Positions 3,901 through 57,975 of a stretch of DNA of 63,350 nt are shown one piece after another. The stretch lies in the IMG/VR virus record IMGVR_UViG_3300020159_004055, positions 1 to 63,350 of that record, one strand, 5' to 3'. Numbering within the stretch: position 1 is the stretch's first letter; each line of letters starts with the position of its first letter. The position numbers and the translations under genes were made by a program. This stretch comes from a virus (lineage: Duplodnaviria > Caudoviricetes). The notes under the pieces were generated by a model that was not told the origin of the DNA, did no database searches, and saw nothing but the letters and a program-made list of their open reading frames with translations.

Positions 3901-5070
3901 ATGAACACTCCAGACTTAAATCGAACCACAGGTATCGAGGATTTTAATTGGAACATCACAAGCAAAAGAAAATTGAATCGCAGCGTTAACACAATTGACG
4001 ATGCTAAAGTTTTCTGCCAGGAAGATTATGCACAACATTTGTATGATCTAATGGCTGACAATTTGAGGTCCGTAAGTGGATCTAAGGATTTGAAAAACGG
4101 TCACGTTTATGAATGCCGTATTACTTCAGTCAACGAGAAGTATGCTATTGCACAAACAGTAGAGGGACAATCAATCTACATTGATCTCGTCAAAGAGAGA
4201 AAAGATGCTATCAAGTTAAATCTTGAAGGACTTAACTTTCAGGTAGGTGCGGAAACACAAGCTATTGTACGAAACGTAATGGGAACATATTACGGTTCTG
4301 TTATCGATTGCTTTATAGAAAACACAAAACTTGAGTTTTTCGAGCAGATTACAAAACAAAGTGTTGCTTACGAAGCTAAAATTGAATCAATCAACAACGG
4401 AGGTTACCTTGTTGAAGTTCAAGGAATCAAGTGTTTCCTTCCGGGGTCATTGGCTGCAGCCAATAAAATTACTGATTTCGAATCTTACCTGGGTAAAAAA
4501 ATCTATGTAATGATTGACGGATACGTTAAGAAGAAAGATATTTTCGTAGTATCCTATAAGAAGTATTTGACTAAGATCATGGATCAAAAAATCCAAGAAC
4601 TAGATCTTACTAAGAAATACAAAGGTCATGTAACTGGTACTTCCGATTTTGGAGTGTTTGTAGAATGGGAAGACATTTACACTGGATTGATCCATAAAAC
4701 AGAATTTGATAATCAGAAAGTTGCTGGATTTGTTGCTGGGGATGAGATTGAGTTTTACATCAAAGAAGTGAAGGACGACAATAGACTGACATTAACTTTT
4801 GGCCAGCCGGTTGATAAGACTTTGAAAGTATATGAAATTAAGAAGTCTATCGAAGACGGGGATAATCCGATTTTCACTGCAAGAGTTAAACACAAGAGGA
4901 AAAACGGAGCACTGGTTGAATTAGAAGAAGTTGGCCTTATGGCGTTGATCCCACAGGGAAGAATAACCAAAGACAGTAAAAACCTTAAGAGTGGAGACCA
5001 GTTGAAGGTTTCTGTTTATGAGGTAGACCCAGTGATGGGCAAAATATTTGCAGAACCTATAAATGAGTAA
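3901..5070 (+). CDS. Ribosomal protein S1 (bS1)-like multi-S1-domain RNA-binding protein
   Basis: S1 motifs INNGGYLVEVQGIKCFLPGS, GHVTGTSDFGVFVE...GLIHKTE, GALVELEEVGLMALIP; about four OB repeats. Confidence 0.8.
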   Translation: MNTPDLNRTTGIEDFNWNITSKRKLNRSVNTIDDAKVFCQEDYAQHLYDLMADNLRSVSGSKDLKNGHVYECRITSVNEKYAIAQTVEGQSIYIDLVKERKDAIKLNLEGLNFQVGAETQAIVRNVMGTYYGSVIDCFIENTKLEFFEQITKQSVAYEAKIESINNGGYLVEVQGIKCFLPGSLAAANKITDFESYLGKKIYVMIDGYVKKKDIFVVSYKKYLTKIMDQKIQELDLTKKYKGHVTGTSDFGVFVEWEDIYTGLIHKTEFDNQKVAGFVAGDEIEFYIKEVKDDNRLTLTFGQPVDKTLKVYEIKKSIEDGDNPIFTARVKHKRKNGALVELEEVGLMALIPQGRITKDSKNLKSGDQLKVSVYEVDPVMGKIFAEPINE

Positions 5071-40006: not shown

Positions 40007-40033
40007 AGCCCCCTAGTTATAGGGGGCTTTTTT
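40007..40033 (+). terminator. Rho-independent terminator
   Basis: AGCCCCCTA-GTTA-TAGGGGGCT followed by a T run. Confidence 0.85.
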
Positions 40034-40070: not shown

Positions 40071-40736
40071 TTGAAAACATTAATCGGAATCGATTTTTCA
40101 CTAAACTCCCCAGCATTTTGTGTTAGAAAAGGCAATCAATTGATTTGGGGATCATTGACAAGAAGCGAGAGGGATAGGGAATCATATATCAAAAGTTCGA
40201 AAAAACCCTATGCTGTCTTGGATCCACAAGAGGAGTTCAATTTTCTTTTTATGGATAAGAAGAAAATGCCAGATGACTATTCTGAAAAGGAGAGAATCAA
40301 GATTGATTATTTTCAGGAGCTTGTTGACATATTTTGGACATCGATAATGGAAATATGTAAAGATGAAGAGATTGTGGTTGCGATGGAGGGTCTAAGTTTT
40401 TCCTCCAATGGCAACGCTTTGATTGATATTTCTATGGCTACTGCCTTGCTAAGGAAAAAGATCGTAGACCAAACCGGAAGCTCGAATTTCCATGTATTTT
40501 CACCCACCTCTGTCAAAAAATTTGCACTCAAGGGAAATGCAAAAAAGCATGAACTTTATGAGTCTTTGGTAAATCTTGATTCTGGAGAAACCAATCTGGG
40601 CAAATTCACTAAAATTTTAGAAGACAATAAGCATGAATGGATCACCGGGGGTGGAAACGTAAATAAGCCTCTAGACGATATGATTGATGCAACTTACATA
40701 TGTCTCTATCTATATGACACAGTCGGAAAAAATTAA
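40071..40736 (+). CDS. RuvC-like Holliday junction resolvase/nuclease
   Basis: IGIDFSLNSPA, VAMEGLSF, PTSVKKFA..GNAKK, DDMIDA; likely TTG start at 40071. Confidence 0.8.
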   Translation: MKTLIGIDFSLNSPAFCVRKGNQLIWGSLTRSERDRESYIKSSKKPYAVLDPQEEFNFLFMDKKKMPDDYSEKERIKIDYFQELVDIFWTSIMEICKDEEIVVAMEGLSFSSNGNALIDISMATALLRKKIVDQTGSSNFHVFSPTSVKKFALKGNAKKHELYESLVNLDSGETNLGKFTKILEDNKHEWITGGGNVNKPLDDMIDATYICLYLYDTVGKN

Positions 40737-41460
40737 CATCCTGATTCCTTTGGGAGGAGCCGGAAAAAGGTTTAGTGATAGCGGATACGAAGTGCCTAAA
40801 CCTTTTATTGATGTTGATGGTGAAACAATGATAAGAAGTGTTGTTAGCAACCTTAAACACGACCACTCGCATTTCATTTTTATAATAAACGAGCAAAGTA
40901 TTGGTATTTCTGATTTTCAGAAACACATTGAGGATTTATCAATTAGTTTTTCAATTTATGCAACACCATCTCTAACCGAGGGACCGGCTAGCACTGTCCT
41001 TTTAGCTAAAGACGAGATCAATACGGATATCCCACTGATAGTCGTTAATTGTGACCAGATCATACTAGACTTCAGTCTAGAAAACCTATTGTCGTTTTCT
41101 AAAACAACCGGCTGTGATGGAATACTCGGATGCTTCCTTTCTTCTTCAAAAAAGAATAGTTACGTTAGATTGGATCCAAACGGGGAAATTAGTGAAGTAA
41201 AGGAGAAGATAGTCATCTCAAATGTCGCAACTAATGGTTTACACTATTGGAAGTGTGGATCACTCTTTGTTAAATCTGCAGAGCAAATGATTGCTTTGGG
41301 TGACAGATATAATAATGAATTTTATGTTGCTCCTTCATATAACTACCTTATCAAGGAGGGGAAAAAAATACTTCCTTTCTTTTACAATTTACACTTTCCG
41401 ATTGGAACACCTGAAGACTTACAAACATACTTAGACATAAAGAAAAATGCAAATATTTAA
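40714..41460 (+). CDS. Sugar-phosphate nucleotidyltransferase (GT-A fold NTP transferase)
   Basis: ILIPLGGAGKRF..GY..PKPFI, TEGPA, VVNCDQ, EVKEK, NEFYVAP, IGTPEDL; likely start ATG 40714. Confidence 0.85.
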   Translation: MTQSEKINILIPLGGAGKRFSDSGYEVPKPFIDVDGETMIRSVVSNLKHDHSHFIFIINEQSIGISDFQKHIEDLSISFSIYATPSLTEGPASTVLLAKDEINTDIPLIVVNCDQIILDFSLENLLSFSKTTGCDGILGCFLSSSKKNSYVRLDPNGEISEVKEKIVISNVATNGLHYWKCGSLFVKSAEQMIALGDRYNNEFYVAPSYNYLIKEGKKILPFFYNLHFPIGTPEDLQTYLDIKKNANI

Positions 41461-41785
41461 GATTGAAGATATGACTGGTGGCTGGTATGCAGGGGATTTT
41501 TCACCCTGTGCTTATCCCACTAAAGATTTTGAAATTTGTTATAAGAAACATCACAAAGGCGAATCGTGGCCAGCCCACTATCACAAAGAAGCTGACGAAA
41601 TAAATTTCCTTCGGAGTGGTAGAATGATCATACAAGGCAAGGAACTAGTGGCTGGTGACATTTTCATTCTCAAAAAGGGTGAGATAGCAAATCCGGTTTT
41701 TCTTGAAGATTGCGAAGTATTTATTGTAAAAACCCCAAGTGTAATCGGTGATAAATTCATATTAGGAGATGATCAGCATATTTAG
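41447..41785 (+). CDS. Cupin-domain protein
   Basis: HYHKEADEIN metal motif and GDIFIL..GE second cupin motif. Confidence 0.8.
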   Translation: MQIFKIEDMTGGWYAGDFSPCAYPTKDFEICYKKHHKGESWPAHYHKEADEINFLRSGRMIIQGKELVAGDIFILKKGEIANPVFLEDCEVFIVKTPSVIGDKFILGDDQHI

Positions 41786-43004
41786 AAAACAAAAAGGGAT
41801 TGATCTAGAGAAATATTTCGTCGTAACCTATTTTTTAGGTGCAAAAACTTCGTTAAGGGAAGCTGCCTGGAATTTAGCTATTGGCCAAAGTATAGGTAAT
41901 CCCAATAACAGAAGCGTTTGGGAAACTGAAGAGATGTTTGAGAACCACAGTTGCTTTATCATGCATGACGAGGAGGAACTCAAAAATTTAAAAGAAGGTG
42001 AAATTAAAATCGCGTTCCCTCTTGATAATTTAGATTTAGAAGAAGACGGGATTTCACAGATCCTGTGTCATATTGCTGGCGGGCAGGTTGATATATTGGA
42101 GATTGAAAAATGCCATATATTGGACGTAACTCTCCCCAAAATCATTGAAGAAATCTTTGCTCTCAAACCTGCTTACGGCATTGATGGTTTTAGAAAGTTC
42201 AATGGGGTGGATGGTAAGCCCTTTCTAGGAGGAATTATCAAACCCAAAGTGGGAATGTCTCCAGCGGTATTACTTGAGGCGGTGAAGGAAATGGTTTCTG
42301 GTGGTGTAAACTTCATCAAAGAGGATGAGCTACTAGCAAATCCTTCCCATTGTCCTTTAGAAGAAAGGGTTCCCCTTATAACTTCTTGGCCGAAAGAAAA
42401 TGCACCTGACGTAATTTATGCTTTCTGTATAAATGGCGACAGTCCTTATGCTTTGGAGAGAGCAAAATTTGTTTCTGAAAATGGTGGCAATGCCATTCAT
42501 ATTAATGTTTGGAGTGGGCTTGGAGTTTACCGGGCAATCAGAAAACAAAACCCTTGCCTCTGGATACACTTTCAAAAAAGCGGTGATAAATTTTTTACCG
42601 ATAGAAGAGCACCATTCCATATCTATTGGCCACTTATTTGCAAGATAGCTGGCTGGTCGGGGGTTGACTCCATTCACGCTGGTATGATTGGTGGATATAT
42701 GAATCAAGACGAGAAGGAATTGGCAGATTGCTTAAGTATGCTTTGGCATTATAATATAGTCCCAGCTCTCAGCTGCGGGATGCACCCCGGACTTGTTGAT
42801 TTTATAAACAAGCAATTAAATTCTGTTGACTGGATGGCAAATGTAGGTGGAGCAATGCACGGACATCCGTCAGGGACAAAAGCTGGTGGTCTCGCGATGA
42901 AGCAAGCAATCAACGGGGAGGTTCAATCTGAAGAGTATTTACAAGCAATAGAAAAATGGGGAATAAAAAGCTTCCCTGAAGATTTAGCATATAGAATTTT
43001 TTAA
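41769..43004 (+). CDS. RuBisCO-like protein (form IV-type RLP)
   Basis: GGIIKPKVG, GGVNFIKEDE, GVDSIHAG, PALSCGMHPG, NVGGAMHGHPSG; lacks carboxylase residues such as K334. Confidence 0.92.
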   Translation: MISIFRKQKGIDLEKYFVVTYFLGAKTSLREAAWNLAIGQSIGNPNNRSVWETEEMFENHSCFIMHDEEELKNLKEGEIKIAFPLDNLDLEEDGISQILCHIAGGQVDILEIEKCHILDVTLPKIIEEIFALKPAYGIDGFRKFNGVDGKPFLGGIIKPKVGMSPAVLLEAVKEMVSGGVNFIKEDELLANPSHCPLEERVPLITSWPKENAPDVIYAFCINGDSPYALERAKFVSENGGNAIHINVWSGLGVYRAIRKQNPCLWIHFQKSGDKFFTDRRAPFHIYWPLICKIAGWSGVDSIHAGMIGGYMNQDEKELADCLSMLWHYNIVPALSCGMHPGLVDFINKQLNSVDWMANVGGAMHGHPSGTKAGGLAMKQAINGEVQSEEYLQAIEKWGIKSFPEDLAYRIF

Positions 43005-43007
43005 GTC

Positions 43008-43466
43008 ATGAGATTAATCTCACATCGTGGAAATGTAAATGGTCCTTATTCGAATCTGGAAAATAGTCCTCATTATATCGATAAGGCGATTTCACAGGGA
43101 TTTGATGTTGAGATTGATGTCTGGGTTGTAGAAGAACAGATTATGTTAGGTCACGATTTTCCACAATTTATGGTAGATCTTGATTGGATTAAAGAAAGAC
43201 ATGATGTTCTTTGGATCCATTGCAAGAATATAGAAGCTATTACTTTCTTTGCAAGATATGATGTGCTTTTTGGGATGACCCATCCTGCATTTAATTATTT
43301 CTGGCACGAGACTGATAAGGTCACTTTAACTTCTAAAGGCGTAATATGGGCTTATCCTGGTAATCAGCCAATTTCAGGAAGCATTGCAGTTTTACCTGAA
43401 CTACATGATGATGACCTTGGAGATTGCTTTGGGGTTTGCTCTGATTTTGTAACTAGATATAAATGA
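43008..43466 (+). CDS. Minimal glycerophosphodiester phosphodiesterase (GDPD)-like protein
   Basis: LISHRGN...ENS...GFDVEIDVW...LGHD, WIHCKN, GVCSDF. Confidence 0.75.
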   Translation: MRLISHRGNVNGPYSNLENSPHYIDKAISQGFDVEIDVWVVEEQIMLGHDFPQFMVDLDWIKERHDVLWIHCKNIEAITFFARYDVLFGMTHPAFNYFWHETDKVTLTSKGVIWAYPGNQPISGSIAVLPELHDDDLGDCFGVCSDFVTRYK

Positions 43467-44245
43467 GGGTAGCACTTTTACTTCCAGGTCAAATAAGGGA
43501 GGCCAAAGATGTATTTCCTTTCATAAAGGGTAAAATCATAGATAAATTCAAAGCTGATGTTTTCATTTCAACGTGGGCACCTTCGAACAAAATAAAACAA
43601 TCCCTACACGCGGATAGTTCACACCTTGTGGATTCATTAACACTGAATGATGCCTTAGAATCTTTTAAACCAAAATCTTTTTTAACAGAAGACTACGAAT
43701 CCGAAGGTATATCAAATATAATTCAGCGTGCTTTTTCATATGATCCTTTGAGTCCAGGCACCGGAGAGATGAATCCTGCCTCAGTTTTTCTGATGTGGTA
43801 TAAAGTTATGCAATGCTTCAATTTGATGTGCGACTACGAAAAAATCATTGGTGAAAGATACGACTATGTTATAAAAGGAAGATTTGACATTAAGATCCAT
43901 AACGACTTGAATTTAGACCCGAATTTGAATACAATCTGTGTACCTCCTGGATATGATTGGAGGGGAGGAGTAAATGACGTTTTCGCTTGGGGAGGCAGAG
44001 ATGCTATGGAATGGTATAGTTCAATGTTCATGCACTTAGAAGAGTATATTCTAACGTTAAACTTTTTCCATCCGGAAACTCTTCTCCGCCGGCATTTAGA
44101 GGTTGGCCCTTATAATTTAGACCGGCCAGACCTCCACGTTTCTCTACGTGGAAAAAATGTTTGGGAAACTGAAGTGCTTGCAGAAAAATTTAATAAAAAA
44201 AGTTACAGATATATAGAATCTAAGGGAAACATTTGGGACACTTAG
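43463..44245 (+). CDS. Putative glycosyltransferase-like protein
   Basis: MRVALLLPGQIR, DVFISTW, MWYK, YDYVIKGRFD, GVNDVFAWG, HPETLL pattern seen in glycan-locus proteins. Confidence 0.6.
   Translation: MRVALLLPGQIREAKDVFPFIKGKIIDKFKADVFISTWAPSNKIKQSLHADSSHLVDSLTLNDALESFKPKSFLTEDYESEGISNIIQRAFSYDPLSPGTGEMNPASVFLMWYKVMQCFNLMCDYEKIIGERYDYVIKGRFDIKIHNDLNLDPNLNTICVPPGYDWRGGVNDVFAWGGRDAMEWYSSMFMHLEEYILTLNFFHPETLLRRHLEVGPYNLDRPDLHVSLRGKNVWETEVLAEKFNKKSYRYIESKGNIWDT
44208..44215 (+). promoter_or_regulatory. GATATATA putative promoter upstream of the gp32-like gene
   Basis: Within the last codons of the preceding ORF, about 70 nt before ATG 44285. Confidence 0.45.
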
Positions 44246-50507: not shown

Positions 50508-52424
50508 ATGGCAGGAATTAATCATTTATACGACATTTACAACAAGAAGGGATCCGACTTTGTAAATCAACTTTTCAACCAGTTCGTAACCATCAATGAG
50601 AAAATGGACGGTTCAGCTTTTTCTTTCGAAAGAGACAAAGAAACTGGAAAATTCAAGTTCTTCAGAAGGGACCAAAGAAATCCTATAACTTTGGTTGATC
50701 GGACCTTAATGAAGTACTATGAGAAGCCAATCCAGTATATTGAATCGTTGCCACCAAACATACTTGAAAAAATACCGAGAGGATGGAGATTTGGTCTCGA
50801 ATATTTTGCTTCTAGACAGCCCGTAGAAATTACCTATGATAGACTACCCAAAAACAATTTAATCCTTTCTTACGTCCATAAAATGGGCGAAGGTGAGAAG
50901 ATTCAGACTACTATCCAAGATAAAGAGAAGCTTGATAATTGGGCGGATCTTTTGGGTGTTGAGAGACCACCGATTATTTTCCAAGGTTTGCTGGACGAAG
51001 ATCAAAAATCTAAATTGCTTGAATTTCTAAACACCCCTTTCAAGGAACTTGTAGAAAAATTTAAGACACAATCTTTCGTCAGATTCCTGATTTCTACACT
51101 TAACCCAGATCTAGAAAAGACAGCTCTTAATGACGACCTAGATAAAGACGTTGAAGGAATAGTTTTCAGATTTGGTGATCCGGATAAAGATAGTGAGACC
51201 ATCCTTGCAAAAATGGTAGATCCTATTTTCACTGAAATAGCAAAGGAAAAGTTTGCTGACAAGCAGGCCAAAAAGCCCAGCGATTTTCTCGGAATCACGA
51301 TTATGGATGTTATGAATTTCATCCTAGAAAAGGGCCTCGACGAGTTTGAGGTTGATGGTGAAAGCGACGATGAGAGATACATTTCATTCATGTCGGATGT
51401 TTATGTTAAATTCTTAGATGAATACTCGGACAAATATAAGGGCACTGACTTTGAAGAACCTGAGTATTTAAAAAGGGATGAATTCAGACTCAATCTCGAT
51501 AAGGTAAAAGACAGAAGAGTTAGAAAGTATGTAGAAAAGGATGAGGCATTCGAATCACTATATAAGCTTATCCTTAATTCATTTAGAAAAATCAAGACAA
51601 GATCTGGTGGAATAGTATCCTCTGGGATGAAGGACCAATTTAACCTCCTGATTCAGGATATTAAAGACTATATCAAAAAACCTAAGGCTAAGATAAATGA
51701 ATCGAATTTTGTTAGCTTCGGTGAATTTAGAAAGGAACTTTCTCCTCAGGTAGATTACATGCAGACAGAATCTGAAGATTCTGATAAATTGGAAGATCCT
51801 TTTTATTCTTTTGAAGAATTCATTACCAAATTAGAAACTATAGGAAACGAATCCTTGCCAAAAGACATAGAGTTGATTGAGGAGGAAACTGGTGATGATT
51901 CCAAGTCGGTAAATGTTATTATGGGTAGATTTCAACCATTTCACAATGGTCATTTACAAATGACCAAAGCAATGAAGGAAGAAAATGGACATCCCACTGT
52001 TTTATTGGTAGTTTATCCAGGTCACAATAAATCTGGCGAATCTCCATTTGACAGCGAAGCAATCAAAAGATACATGGATGCTGTCGTAAATAATAACGAA
52101 GAAATTGATTCCTACATTGTTATGAATCGTGGTCTACTCGGTTCTGGAATTGCCAAGCTAGTTGATAAGGGGTACAATCCAATTTTGATCGGATCAGGTC
52201 CAGACCGTTACGAGGATTACCAAAAGCAAATGGATTATATTAGAATGTCCGATATCAAAGACAGGATTAGTAAAGATATGAAGCTTTTTAAAACCGAAAG
52301 AACTACGAGCGGAACAAAAGCCAGAGAGTATTTGACACAGGGAGACTTTTCTAAATTCAAAAAGATCGTTCCGAAGGAGGTTGCTAATCTTTACAATGAC
52401 TTAGTTACCTTTGTCAAGGACTGA
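50508..52424 (+). CDS. Fusion of an RNA-ligase-like adenylation domain and an HxGH cytidylyltransferase-like domain
   Basis: NEKMDGS (motif I), EGIVFR (IV), AKMVD (V); C-terminal GRFQPFHNGH and TSGTKARE. Confidence 0.75.
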   Translation: MAGINHLYDIYNKKGSDFVNQLFNQFVTINEKMDGSAFSFERDKETGKFKFFRRDQRNPITLVDRTLMKYYEKPIQYIESLPPNILEKIPRGWRFGLEYFASRQPVEITYDRLPKNNLILSYVHKMGEGEKIQTTIQDKEKLDNWADLLGVERPPIIFQGLLDEDQKSKLLEFLNTPFKELVEKFKTQSFVRFLISTLNPDLEKTALNDDLDKDVEGIVFRFGDPDKDSETILAKMVDPIFTEIAKEKFADKQAKKPSDFLGITIMDVMNFILEKGLDEFEVDGESDDERYISFMSDVYVKFLDEYSDKYKGTDFEEPEYLKRDEFRLNLDKVKDRRVRKYVEKDEAFESLYKLILNSFRKIKTRSGGIVSSGMKDQFNLLIQDIKDYIKKPKAKINESNFVSFGEFRKELSPQVDYMQTESEDSDKLEDPFYSFEEFITKLETIGNESLPKDIELIEEETGDDSKSVNVIMGRFQPFHNGHLQMTKAMKEENGHPTVLLVVYPGHNKSGESPFDSEAIKRYMDAVVNNNEEIDSYIVMNRGLLGSGIAKLVDKGYNPILIGSGPDRYEDYQKQMDYIRMSDIKDRISKDMKLFKTERTTSGTKAREYLTQGDFSKFKKIVPKEVANLYNDLVTFVKD

Positions 52425-56704: not shown

Positions 56705-56917
56705 ATGTCAAGAGAAAGAGAAATGTTAGACACCTGGGCAAAAGAGTTTGCCTCGGATATCTTAAAGAAAGAAGAAGATCCAGACTTCGAATCCGTTTTG
56801 GATAGAACACTTATCGTTAGGAAGCTTTCGGTAGTTATGGAAATGTCCTATGCAGAGACTGCAAGTGCTTTGGATAGTAAAATAAATGAATATAAGAGAA
56901 AACTAAGGTTCTCATAA
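56705..56917 (+). CDS. Hypothetical protein
   Basis: Likely start ATG 56705; TAATG coupling to the next gene. Confidence 0.5.
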   Translation: MSREREMLDTWAKEFASDILKKEEDPDFESVLDRTLIVRKLSVVMEMSYAETASALDSKINEYKRKLRFS

Positions 56918-57306
56918 TGGAAAGACTGATTCAGGAAGATTTTACAGACAGCCCATGGAAAATGACCGTGATCTGTATTCTTCTGAATCAGACTACCAAC
57001 CAACAGGTAAGAAAAGTTCTTCCAGAACTTTTCGAACTCATTCCAGATTGTACTATTGCATCGAACGCTCAGGAGAATCAGATCTATGATGTCATAAAAT
57101 CTACCGGCTTTGGCAACGTCAAAGCTAGAAGAATAATTCAAATGAGCAAAAAATGGACCTCTGGGTTTTCTAAACCCGGAGAGCTTCCGGGGGTTGGTAA
57201 ATACGCCTTGGAATCTTGGAGTATTTTTGTTGACGGTAAAACTAACTTTATTCCTTCCGACAAGAAGCTAAAACTTTATCTAGAGACTCATTATCACCTT
57301 GATTAG
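56917..57306 (+). CDS. MBD4-like HhH-GPD DNA glycosylase
   Basis: LIQE...PWKMTVICILLNQT, ELPGVGKYALESWSIF, PSDKKLKLY parallel the MBD4 glycosylase domain. Confidence 0.8.
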   Translation: MERLIQEDFTDSPWKMTVICILLNQTTNQQVRKVLPELFELIPDCTIASNAQENQIYDVIKSTGFGNVKARRIIQMSKKWTSGFSKPGELPGVGKYALESWSIFVDGKTNFIPSDKKLKLYLETHYHLD

Positions 57307-57975
57307 ATCTGGGTGTGGATAGCAACTGAGCTTATCAATTCTTACATTAGAATGTGACCATAACCCAGGAGAACCAGAAAGGGCTTGCTCGTTCATTTCA
57401 AAAGGTGCGGAATTTCCTGACTTGGATATCTGTTTCTGCAATCCTTTTTTTAAATTAATATCAAATTCTTTCCCCAGGTCTATAAGCAACTCGTACAAGG
57501 AATCCAATTGTTTTGGAGTGTAGGAATGAAAATACTTACTTCCTCTAAAATCGGATTCTAGAATGGTTACGTCTTGCTTCCTTATCTTTATGTTGGTGGA
57601 TGTGTAAAACTCTCCTCCGGATGTTTTAATCAGTTCTCCGTAATTGCATAGTTCTATTCCTATGCTTTTTTGGTTTAGGAAGGTGTTGTTTTTGGCCTTG
57701 ATAAAAAGATGGTGTGACCACATCTGAGGGTCGAAAGCTTTGTAAATCTGCCCGTCGAATTCATCAGATTCCGATATTTCGTGGTTTGATCCACCTATTA
57801 CAAAAGCAGATCCGGACCTAATTTTATTTGTTGATTCTATCCTGTCTCTCCCCCAAGAGTTTATAACCCAATCGGGCCTGAAGAATCCGCTAGTATGACG
57901 TATGAAAATGGAGTCCTTAGGAATTGACTCTTGATAATATGATCCTTCCGAAAGAGGATGCTCGACACATTCCAA
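57280..57975 (-). CDS. N-acetylmuramoyl-L-alanine amidase (Amidase_2) family protein
   Basis: IFIRHTSG, WSHHL, NQKSIGIELCNYG, YTPKQLDSL, GLWSHSNVR.DK. Confidence 0.75.
   Translation of the reverse strand: MECVEHPLSEGSYYQESIPKDSIFIRHTSGFFRPDWVINSWGRDRIESTNKIRSGSAFVIGGSNHEISESDEFDGQIYKAFDPQMWSHHLFIKAKNNTFLNQKSIGIELCNYGELIKTSGGEFYTSTNIKIRKQDVTILESDFRGSKYFHSYTPKQLDSLYELLIDLGKEFDINLKKGLQKQISKSGNSAPFEMNEQALSGSPGLWSHSNVRIDKLSCYPHPDLIKVIMSL

Follow-up and report, generated by a model that had tools for sequence, protein, structure and literature searches.

A 63,350-base stretch of DNA from a large, freshwater tailed phage (IMG/VR virus record IMGVR_UViG_3300020159_004055; hereafter the window, meaning the whole stretch that was analyzed, which is also the whole of that record) encodes a RuBisCO-like protein (RLP) within a run of five close-packed genes. 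The function that we favor for this protein, with reasonable though far from full confidence, is that of a non-carboxylating, enolizing isomerase or epimerase of a phosphorylated keto-sugar that would feed a pathway for activated sugars. It is read as an enolizing isomerase or epimerase because its enolization residues are kept while its carboxylation residues are replaced by the same residues clade-wide; it is placed in a sugar-activation pathway because its gene is linked to that of a putative nucleotidyltransferase (NTPtr), because RLP–NTPtr, p152–RLP and HAD–NTPtr fusions occur, and because of the type of the NTPtr, the glycan-related neighbors and the operon structure. The proposal is built on the fold, the residue pattern, selection, the clade, gene linkage and fusions, from which we infer the enolization chemistry, the order of steps, the nature of the substrate and the acceptor. 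Gene context is the most informative part of the finding, and it was absent from an earlier interpretation of this DNA made from its letters and open reading frames (ORFs), referred to below as the sequence-only reading. The five genes are as follows.

40714..41460, + strand: NTPtr, a predicted sugar-1-phosphate-type nucleotidyltransferase (248 aa from the ATG at 40714; the mechanical ORF runs from TTG 40684)
41447..41785, + strand: a predicted small single-domain metal cupin (112 aa)
41769..43004, + strand: the RLP, of the 'Form IV-like' clade (ATG to TAA, 411 aa)
43008..43466, + strand: p152, a predicted miniature GDPD-type phosphodiesterase barrel (152 aa)
43463..44245, + strand: p260, a GT-A-fold, DUF7796-like, probable glycosyltransferase (260 aa)

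The RLP is thus the third gene of the run. The NTPtr and cupin genes overlap by 14 nt, the cupin and RLP genes by 17 nt, and p152 and p260 by 4 nt, with a gap of 3 nt between RLP and p152; no strong terminator lies inside the cassette.

Judged by its domain matches, the ORF at 41769..43004 is an intact, full-length member of the RuBisCO large-subunit superfamily, with both Pfam domains over their gathering scores: RuBisCO_large (PF00016) at 3.4e-32 (112.3 bits, cut-off 30.1) and RuBisCO_large_N (PF02788) at 4.8e-5 (24.0 bits, cut-off 20.7). It matches 99 distinct RuBisCO or RLP sequences in the PDB at E <= 0.001, the best solved match being 3nwr (3.2e-34 over residues 77–381) and the second the Pyrococcus form III enzyme 2cwx (2.5e-32). 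NCBIfam scores would place it outside forms I, II and III, MtnW and OiaX, since all are far under cut-off: the best match is to rubisco_III (155.2 bits against 497.45), and the others include PRK04208 (135.9 against 438), OiaX (1.9e-36, 125.8 against 700), the MtnW models PRK09549 (117.4 against 409) and TIGR03332 (91.9 against 513.6), and the form II model PRK13475 (99.7 against 489). No PHROGs family matches the RLP.

In RuBisCO, the carbamate on K201 acts with Mg2+, held by D203 and E204, to remove a proton from the substrate, and the resulting enediolate is dealt with by K175; CO2 addition, hydration and C–C cleavage fall to H294, to K334 together with E60, and to N123. One phosphate is bound by G381, G403, G404, T65 and W66, the other by R295, H298 and H327. 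The corresponding residues of the RLP were called in two ways, by HMMER pairwise alignment to the form III enzyme 2cwx and in a 177-sequence MAFFT alignment whose anchor, P0242, is a form III protein scoring above its NCBIfam cut-off; the alignment columns are named by spinach RbcL numbers, given in brackets below. The two sets of assignments agree. Kept in the RLP are K158 (K175), K160 (K177), K184 (K201), D186 (D203), E187 (E204) and H303 (H327), together with S335 (S379) and the phosphate-loop positions G337 (G381) and G360/G361 (G403/G404). Replacements in the N-terminal domain are G39 (E60), N44 (T65), P45 (W66) and G105 (N123), and those elsewhere are E185 (D202), Q269 (H294), K270 (R295), D273 (H298), Y310 (K334) and C336 (G380). 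Pairwise alignment to 3nwr introduces a one-residue gap in loop 6 that puts K334 on G309 and not on Y310; the lysine is absent both ways. The codons concerned lie as follows.

42240..42329, + strand: codons of the predicted enolization core (K158 at 42240-42242, K160 at 42246-42248, K184 at 42318-42320, D186 at 42324-42326, E187 at 42327-42329)
42573..42698, + strand: codons at the replaced catalytic positions (Q269 at 42573-42575, K270, D273, and Y310 at 42696-42698)
41883-41885 and 42081-42083, + strand: replaced N-domain codons, G39 (E60) and G105 (N123)

By this pattern the clade appears to keep the enolization set and to have lost the set for CO2 addition, hydration and cleavage; it also appears to keep the backbone phosphate loop, to soften the second phosphate site (K, D, H) and to fill the N-domain lid with small residues. 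With E60G, N123G, H294Q and K334Y, the RLP would not count as a bona fide RuBisCO of forms I, II or III. The by-eye calls of the sequence-only reading (K175/K177, K201/D203/E204, H327, S379 and the GG loop kept; E60 lost, H294/R295 changed to Q/K and K334 to Y) all stand in the HMMER and MAFFT alignments, which restore neither H294 nor K334. Its suggestion that carbamate and Mg binding and enolization looked possible and CO2 fixation did not is likewise consistent with the residues, the enolization set being present and the carboxylation set absent.

Nine positions (G60, K175, K177, K201, D203, E204, Q294, Y334 and S379) show no variation across the 28 clade representatives, the 65 IMG/VR homologues or the 48 cellular homologues, which reach down to 32% identity. 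Elsewhere in the superfamily, position 294 is H in 19/24 form-III-like, 12/12 MtnW-like and 14/14 OiaX-like rows, and position 334 is K in 18/24, 8/12 and 13/14, respectively. All but one of the 80 viral loci have a full-length, intact RLP gene, and comparison with 12 close relatives gives 0.12–0.15 nonsynonymous differences per site (pN) against 0.79–0.89 synonymous differences per site (pS); pN and pS are given instead of dN/dS because synonymous sites are saturated. Low pN beside saturated pS indicates strong purifying selection on the gene, and since the replaced positions are themselves invariant, an active enzyme with an altered reaction is indicated rather than a dead one.

A search of 1.84 billion representatives returned 954 matches to the RLP, and none of its 20 closest full-length relatives matches any NCBIfam model at E <= 1e-90. 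In a FastTree phylogeny of 112 rows, the window RLP falls in a 28-row clade with 99% support that contains no form III, MtnW, OiaX or form II label. An IQ-TREE analysis (LG+C20 mixture, short search) of 56 rows, obtained by dropping 70 of the 112 rows and adding 14 cellular homologues, sets off a 29-row clade (the window RLP, 14 metagenomic and 14 cellular rows) by a branch whose SH-aLRT support is 99%; inside this clade, phage-type rows are mixed with cellular ones, and the MtnW-like group (97% support) and the OiaX-like group (100%) both exclude the window RLP. The cellular rows come from Pelagibacter, Verrucomicrobiae, Saccharibacteria, Beckwithbacteria, Woesearchaeota, Micrarchaeota and Legionella, and further from Nonomuraea, Azospirillum, Turneriella, Elusimicrobia and Sphingobacteriales, so that the clade spans phages, bacteria and archaea, with SAR11, Legionellaceae, Actinomycetota and DPANN among its cellular carriers, and Nonomuraea rosea JCM 17326 and Azospirillum oleiclasticum RWY-5-1-1 among those that are cultured and non-pathogenic. 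The proposal that the residue set marks a clade of its own is therefore borne out, with branches of 99% support parting it from form II/III, MtnW-like and OiaX-like proteins, and the window RLP did not nest in a characterized RLP clade, the result named beforehand as telling against that proposal; the clade that holds it is described but uncharacterized.

Phage-encoded 'Form IV-like' RLPs with divergent key residues, grouped with Beckwithbacteria, have been published (Jaffe et al., Mol Biol Evol 2019; PMC6389311), and in the portions of that paper drawn on here the function of the clade is left open. Like those proteins, as they are described there, the window RLP is phage-borne (Myoviridae-type, IMG/VR-derived) and highly divergent, groups with Beckwithbacteria and has key residues unlike those of known form IV; a Beckwithbacteria homologue with 52% identity (L092) falls within its 99%-supported clade. 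Going by this description and the shared Beckwithbacteria grouping, as distinct from direct sequence comparison, the window RLP appears to fit the 'Form IV-like' clade. The Global Ocean Sampling paper (PMC1821046), in the portion consulted, already reports unplaced RuBisCO-homologue groups. On the portions of these papers used here, neither the clade nor its unusual residues are new, and the RLP is an added member of a published, uncharacterized clade; the NTPtr, cupin and phosphodiesterase context, the fusions and the wide cellular range were found here and are not mentioned in the same portions of PMC6389311.

Partners of the RLP gene were sought by BLASTP in 80 viral loci, kept from the 121 IMG/VR stretches on which relatives are encoded, and by profile searches in 50 cellular loci from bacterial and archaeal genomes. 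NTPtr adjoins RLP in 77 of the viral and 45 of the cellular loci; p152 occurs in 64/80 and 27/50, the cupin in 61/80 and 16/50, and p260 in 29/80 and 12/50. The window's other neighbors (tail tube, RuvC-like, gp32 and primase genes) recur in just 16–20 of the 80 viral loci, against 77 for NTPtr, and the link therefore exceeds plain synteny; because the partner genes recur while the flanking phage genes do not, the module moves between phage backbones as a unit. In cellular loci the RLP is often flanked by two NTPtr paralogues. Fusions join the same partners: RLP is fused to NTP_transferase in P0123, p152 (the mini-GDPD) is fused N-terminally to RLP in P0165, and 4 of the 11 long NTPtr forms scanned are HAD_2–NTPtr fusions, the HAD part of which is closest to the beta-phosphoglucomutase family (95.8 bits, under the cut-off of 153). 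A complex prediction for RLP and NTPtr scored 0.00 against a mark of 0.32, which, with controls not run, is evidence neither way.

The cassette sits within glycan islands, and its neighbors elsewhere are typical glycan genes, among them genes for TylF/FkbM-type methyltransferases, SDR epimerases/dehydratases, UDP-GlcNAc 2-epimerase, DegT aminotransferase, GT2, GT17 and GT61; an SDR gene lies beside the module in just 12 of 80 viral loci. Twenty recurrent unannotated neighbors have no NCBIfam or Pfam match. No paper that ties an RLP to a nucleotidyltransferase, a nucleotide sugar or glycan synthesis came up in literature searches, and as far as these searches reach the cassette context is apparently unpublished. 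LicD, a phospho-alcohol transferase, adjoins the module in four Legionellaceae loci; it was considered as an explanation of the phage cassette and set aside when phmmer and jackhmmer searches over the ORFs of all 130 loci found LicD in those four loci only.

Some further architectures and loci were met in the course of these comparisons. A phage-clade RLP that is cut at a contig end (P0156, 487 aa) is preceded by 324 residues without a Pfam or PDB sequence match; this N-terminal part lies near viral Atlas clusters, 14–19% of them with Glyco_transf_9, and is a lead for a glycosyltransferase–RLP fusion. P0190 (583 aa) and its sister P0192 consist of a complete RLP with a TIR_2 domain (3.3e-13) fused at its N-terminal side, an arrangement that suggests use in defense or signaling; the pair branches separately from the phage clade with 100% support. 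Two proteins (P0153, 726 aa; P0157, 742 aa) carry an IF-2B-family domain of the ribose-1,5-bisphosphate or MTR-1-P isomerase type fused to a form-III-like RuBisCO, that is, two AMP-pathway steps on one polypeptide, and a 1265-aa protein (P0252) has a form-III-like RuBisCO domain (residues 438–860) and then an APH-type phosphotransferase domain. A 64,200-base contig labeled as a Saprospirales metagenome-assembled genome (MAG; L082) has the full five-gene cassette in the window's order, with an RLP that is 78% identical, and is probably a phage contig misplaced in a bacterial MAG. In Nonomuraea rosea (L119, 4072-5217 and 12634-13692), an RLP, cupin, NTPtr and p152 module lies between a phage-type integrase and a transposase-type integrase (rve_3), adjoined by an AdoHcyase-like NAD-binding protein and a deoxynucleoside-kinase-like protein, and has the look of a mobile island. 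At L069 (7954-9735, − strand) and two related loci, all three of them viral loci labeled as giant-virus bins, the module adjoins a thiamine-diphosphate enzyme that has the full trio of TPP domains.

The NTPtr has the nucleotide-binding motif GGAGKRF and matches Pfam NTP_transferase (3.7e-11) and phrog_3980 (1.9e-56). A profile of 39 orthologues finds as its best PDB match the Vibrio cholerae 'nucleoside-diphosphate-sugar pyrophosphorylase' 4evw (2.9e-31); mannose-1-P guanylyltransferases (ManC) and glucose-1-P thymidylyltransferases (RmlA) come next at 1e-8 to 1e-11, and IspD and LicC-type enzymes are much weaker. By these matches the NTPtr would be closest to the pyrophosphorylases of nucleoside-diphosphate (NDP) sugars. 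In the cupin, the motif 1 residues H44, H46, E51 and G58 are invariant in 41 orthologues; the profile matches quercetin 2,3-dioxygenase (1.2e-6), small Cupin_2 proteins and a 113-aa mannose-6-phosphate isomerase (about 2e-4) and KdgF (0.016), Pfam matches are under their cut-offs, and phrog_24762 is matched at 4.3e-28. The protein thus seems to resemble both small sugar(-phosphate) isomerases and dioxygenases.

p152 has no Pfam match at E <= 0.01 and is about 90 residues shorter than solved GDPDs. Its residues H6, R7, G8, E18, N19, E35, D37 and H49 (the HRG, EN, ExD and GH(D) positions) are invariant in 45 orthologues, and D50 is nearly so; its profile matches the GDPD structures 3i10 (1.5e-4) and 7e0v (1.7e-4). 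The AlphaFold2 (AF2) model (pLDDT 96.1) has GDPD 1v8e as its best Foldseek match (8.6e-4), and the top 22 VIA-align rows are GDPD or PLD-type phosphodiesterases, the best being 1o1z (Z 10.2; root-mean-square deviation, rmsd, 3.4 A; 141 of 152 residues across the whole barrel). For p260 there is no Pfam or NCBIfam match, and its profile has no PDB sequence match; in Atlas it joins viral DUF7796 clusters (score 0.97). Its AF2 model (pLDDT 87.6) matches the GT6 enzyme BoGT6a in Foldseek (1.3e-7), then glycogenin and GTA/GTB, and in VIA-align Mnn9 (Z 11.0, rmsd 3.3 A, 181 aligned) and BoGT6a (Z 10.8), with the GT-A-fold nucleotidyltransferases IspD and GlmU close behind (Z 9–9.7). Its modeled fold makes p260 probably a glycosyltransferase, of a GT-A fold nearest the GT6, GT8 and Mnn9 types.

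In the pathway that we propose, the Mg2+/carbamyl-lysine center (K184, D186 and E187, with K158 and K160) would enolize a phosphorylated keto-sugar, and the enediol would be reprotonated at the other face or at another carbon, so that the enzyme would act as an epimerase or isomerase; the invariant Y310, at the loop-6 K334 position, is a candidate for donating the proton. The NTPtr would turn the product, or what the cupin makes of it, into an NDP-sugar, and in some phages the beta-phosphoglucomutase-like HAD domain fused to the NTPtr would join the pathway. GT-A-fold transferases such as p260 would then use the activated sugar to decorate a glycan, and p152 may act somewhere in the same pathway.

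Precedents exist for parts of this scheme. The Rhodospirillum rubrum 'DeepYkr' RLP is a 5-methylthio-D-ribulose-1-phosphate 1,3-isomerase, in which enolization followed by reprotonation elsewhere yields an isomeric sugar phosphate. MtnW/YkrW (2,3-diketo-5-methylthiopentyl-1-phosphate enolase, form IV) has the same fold as the RLP (2oej, 2oek and 2zvi match at 1e-21 to 1e-26) and enolizes a keto-phosphate without CO2 fixation at an Mg2+/carbamate center of the kind predicted here. However, MtnW-like rows keep H294 and mostly K334 and lose K177, whereas the window RLP has Q and Y and keeps K177; the two fall in separate clades, and the methionine-salvage context is absent beside the RLP. OiaX/OiaT (3-oxo-isoapionate-4-phosphate decarboxylase and transcarboxylase-hydrolase of D-apiose catabolism) are RLPs that act on a phosphorylated keto-sugar acid in sugar metabolism, but OiaX-like rows keep H294 (14/14) and K334 (13/14) and form a separate, 100%-supported clade, and these enzymes are catabolic and unlinked to a nucleotidyltransferase. 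The uncharacterized Burkholderia fungorum RLP 3nwr, although the best solved sequence match, keeps H294, R295 and K334. Pathways of the GDP-D-glycero-D-manno-heptose type run from a ketose phosphate through an isomerase, a HAD phosphatase, the nucleotidyltransferase HddC and a GT9 transferase. The logic proposed here is alike, in that a ketose phosphate would be reshaped, with a HAD step and activation by an RmlA-fold nucleotidyltransferase, and the HddC model is a weak full-length match to the window NTPtr (4.3e-7, 29.8 bits against a cut-off of 300), with the Glyco_transf_9-bearing clusters near the N-terminal part of P0156 as a further lead; unlike the heptose pathways, the cassette has no SIS isomerase or kinase, and the RLP takes the isomerase's place.

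Several points weigh against the proposed function. The constant core of the cassette is the RLP–NTPtr pair alone, the cupin being missing from 34 of 50 cellular loci and p260 from 51 of 80 viral loci. The NTPtr family could instead activate a non-sugar phosphate, and the adjoining LicD points to phospho-alcohol transfer in Legionellaceae. The best structural relatives of the cupin include dioxygenases, and fold alone, as modeled, cannot tell p260 from a GT-A-fold nucleotidyltransferase. The combination of RLP, HAD and cupin appears to mirror the MtnW–MtnX–MtnD steps of methionine salvage, which are a different chemistry, and H298D together with the small N-domain lid residues could equally mean an NDP-linked substrate. 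Finally, no RNA run is among those listed as containing the cassette.

The last of the points drawn from the active site leads to the alternative that fares best, unlikely as we consider it to be: the RLP would act after activation and enolize an NDP-linked keto-sugar, its nucleotide occupying the space in which, in true RuBisCO, the N-domain lid shuts over the P1 phosphate. All four lid residues have been swapped for smaller ones and fixed (E60G, T65N, W66P and N123G), the P1 backbone loop (G381, G403 and G404) is kept, the second phosphate site is short of one ligand through H298D, and small cupins that act on NDP-keto-sugars are known; the RLP–NTPtr fusion is compatible with either order of steps. 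Against this order, the core cassette holds no NDP-sugar 4,6-dehydratase or oxidoreductase to make the keto group (SDR genes, as noted, lie beside the module in 12/80 viral loci), and the RLPs characterized so far are all known to use small phosphorylated substrates.

Acireductone-type chemistry as in methionine salvage is quite improbable. Here the RLP would enolize a diketo-phosphate, the HAD domain would dephosphorylate it and the cupin would be a dioxygenase, in an auxiliary salvage or cleavage pathway; the parallel of the RLP, HAD and metal cupin trio with MtnW, MtnX and MtnD, the dioxygenases at the head of the cupin profile's PDB matches (1.2e-6) and the presence of MtnW-type models among the weak NCBIfam matches of the RLP all speak for it. 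Yet the RLP has Q where 12/12 MtnW-like rows keep H294, those rows and the clade are separate, and the MtnW score is 117 bits against a cut-off of 409; no MtnA-, MtnB- or MtnK-like genes were seen beside the RLP, and the HAD domain, a fusion partner of the NTPtr, has the beta-phosphoglucomutase family as its nearest match. The constant NTPtr partner and the glycosyltransferase and methyltransferase surroundings would be left unexplained.

It is very improbable that the RLP gene is a passenger that has lost catalysis or is decaying, or that its product has a structural or regulatory role alone: four canonical catalytic residues are lost and no RNA run is listed with the cassette, but the gene is intact in 79/80 viral loci, the metal and carbamate residues are kept, pN is 0.12–0.15 against saturated synonymous sites, and decay would not leave the replaced positions invariant, as they are. 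Least credible of all is a true CO2-fixing or oxygenating RuBisCO that boosts host carbon metabolism, for although a form III model is the best NCBIfam match, a form III enzyme is the second PDB match, and K175, K177 and the carbamate triad are kept, none of E60, N123, H294 and K334 is retained, the form III model gives 155 bits against 497, the 52 ORFs of the window showed no phosphoribulokinase, AMP phosphorylase or ribose-1,5-bisphosphate isomerase, and the carriers include heterotrophs.

The non-carboxylating isomerase or epimerase can be extended to the clade as a whole, a step on which our judgment is evenly divided. The clade would be a dedicated enzyme of nucleotide-sugar biosynthesis that makes a rare sugar phosphate (such as that of a pentulose, 3-keto or epimeric sugar) out of a common ketose phosphate, for activation by the NTPtr, and phages would shuttle the cassette among SAR11, the candidate phyla radiation (CPR), DPANN, Legionellaceae and others to rewrite the glycans of cell surfaces or virions. 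The gene is sporadic by family sampling, being present in 1 of 101 Legionellaceae genomes and 2 of 151 Pelagibacteraceae genomes, query genomes included, and such sporadic presence is what variable surface-glycan islands would be expected to give. The sequence-only reading had called RuBisCO-superfamily genes rare in viruses, which holds for GenBank phages, since none of 50,697 records matches by tblastn with the protein or by megablast with 10 kb (a collection that may not include the window's own record), and does not hold for IMG/VR, with its 121 stretches. Near-identical cassette DNA (at least half of the sampled words) occurs in 17 metagenome runs, and all or part of it is contained in 8 studies of freshwater, lake and estuary samples (2018–2025), one of which may have supplied the window itself.

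RLPs are, to our knowledge, a classic case of the reuse of one active site for new chemistry, with a handful of functions known, all of them catabolic or salvage. Going by sequence, the present RLP probably remodels a sugar phosphate on the way to an unusual surface sugar. If so, the RuBisCO fold would for the first time have an anabolic part in the building of glycans, an activated sugar would be reached by a new route, the superfamily would gain a reaction type, and the finding would point to a new sugar in the surface glycans that govern phage–host recognition in abundant aquatic microbes. The clade is common (121 IMG/VR stretches; phages, bacteria and archaea) and its active site is fixed.

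By gene content the source virus is clearly a T4-like tailed phage: the window, with an estimated completeness of 23% and a G+C content of 36–41%, encodes a T4-like set comprising baseplate hub and wedge, tail tube, tail fiber, PhoH, a gp32-type single-stranded DNA-binding protein, primase, helicase and DNA polymerase, along with a MazG-like pyrophosphohydrolase, a ribonucleotide reductase small subunit and Hsp20. No tRNA genes were found in the window, and no further sugar genes among its other 34 ORFs. The sole strong terminator-like hairpin before the cassette lies upstream of the RuvC-like gene.

40007..40028, + strand: terminator-like hairpin (9 pairs, 6 of them G-C, then a T run; a consensus match alone)

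Three other regions of the window may be recorded. A 638-aa protein (50508-52424, + strand; phrog_3041, phrog_395) joins an RNA-ligase domain (1.6e-7) to a C-terminal cytidylyltransferase-like domain. Amid the baseplate genes, a 389-aa protein (3901-5070, + strand) combines an S1 RNA-binding domain (1.9e-17) with an OB fold. An ORF resembling HhH-GPD base-excision glycosylases (56917-57306, + strand; 4.5e-10) adjoins an Amidase_2 ORF of the endolysin type on the opposite strand (57280-57975, − strand).

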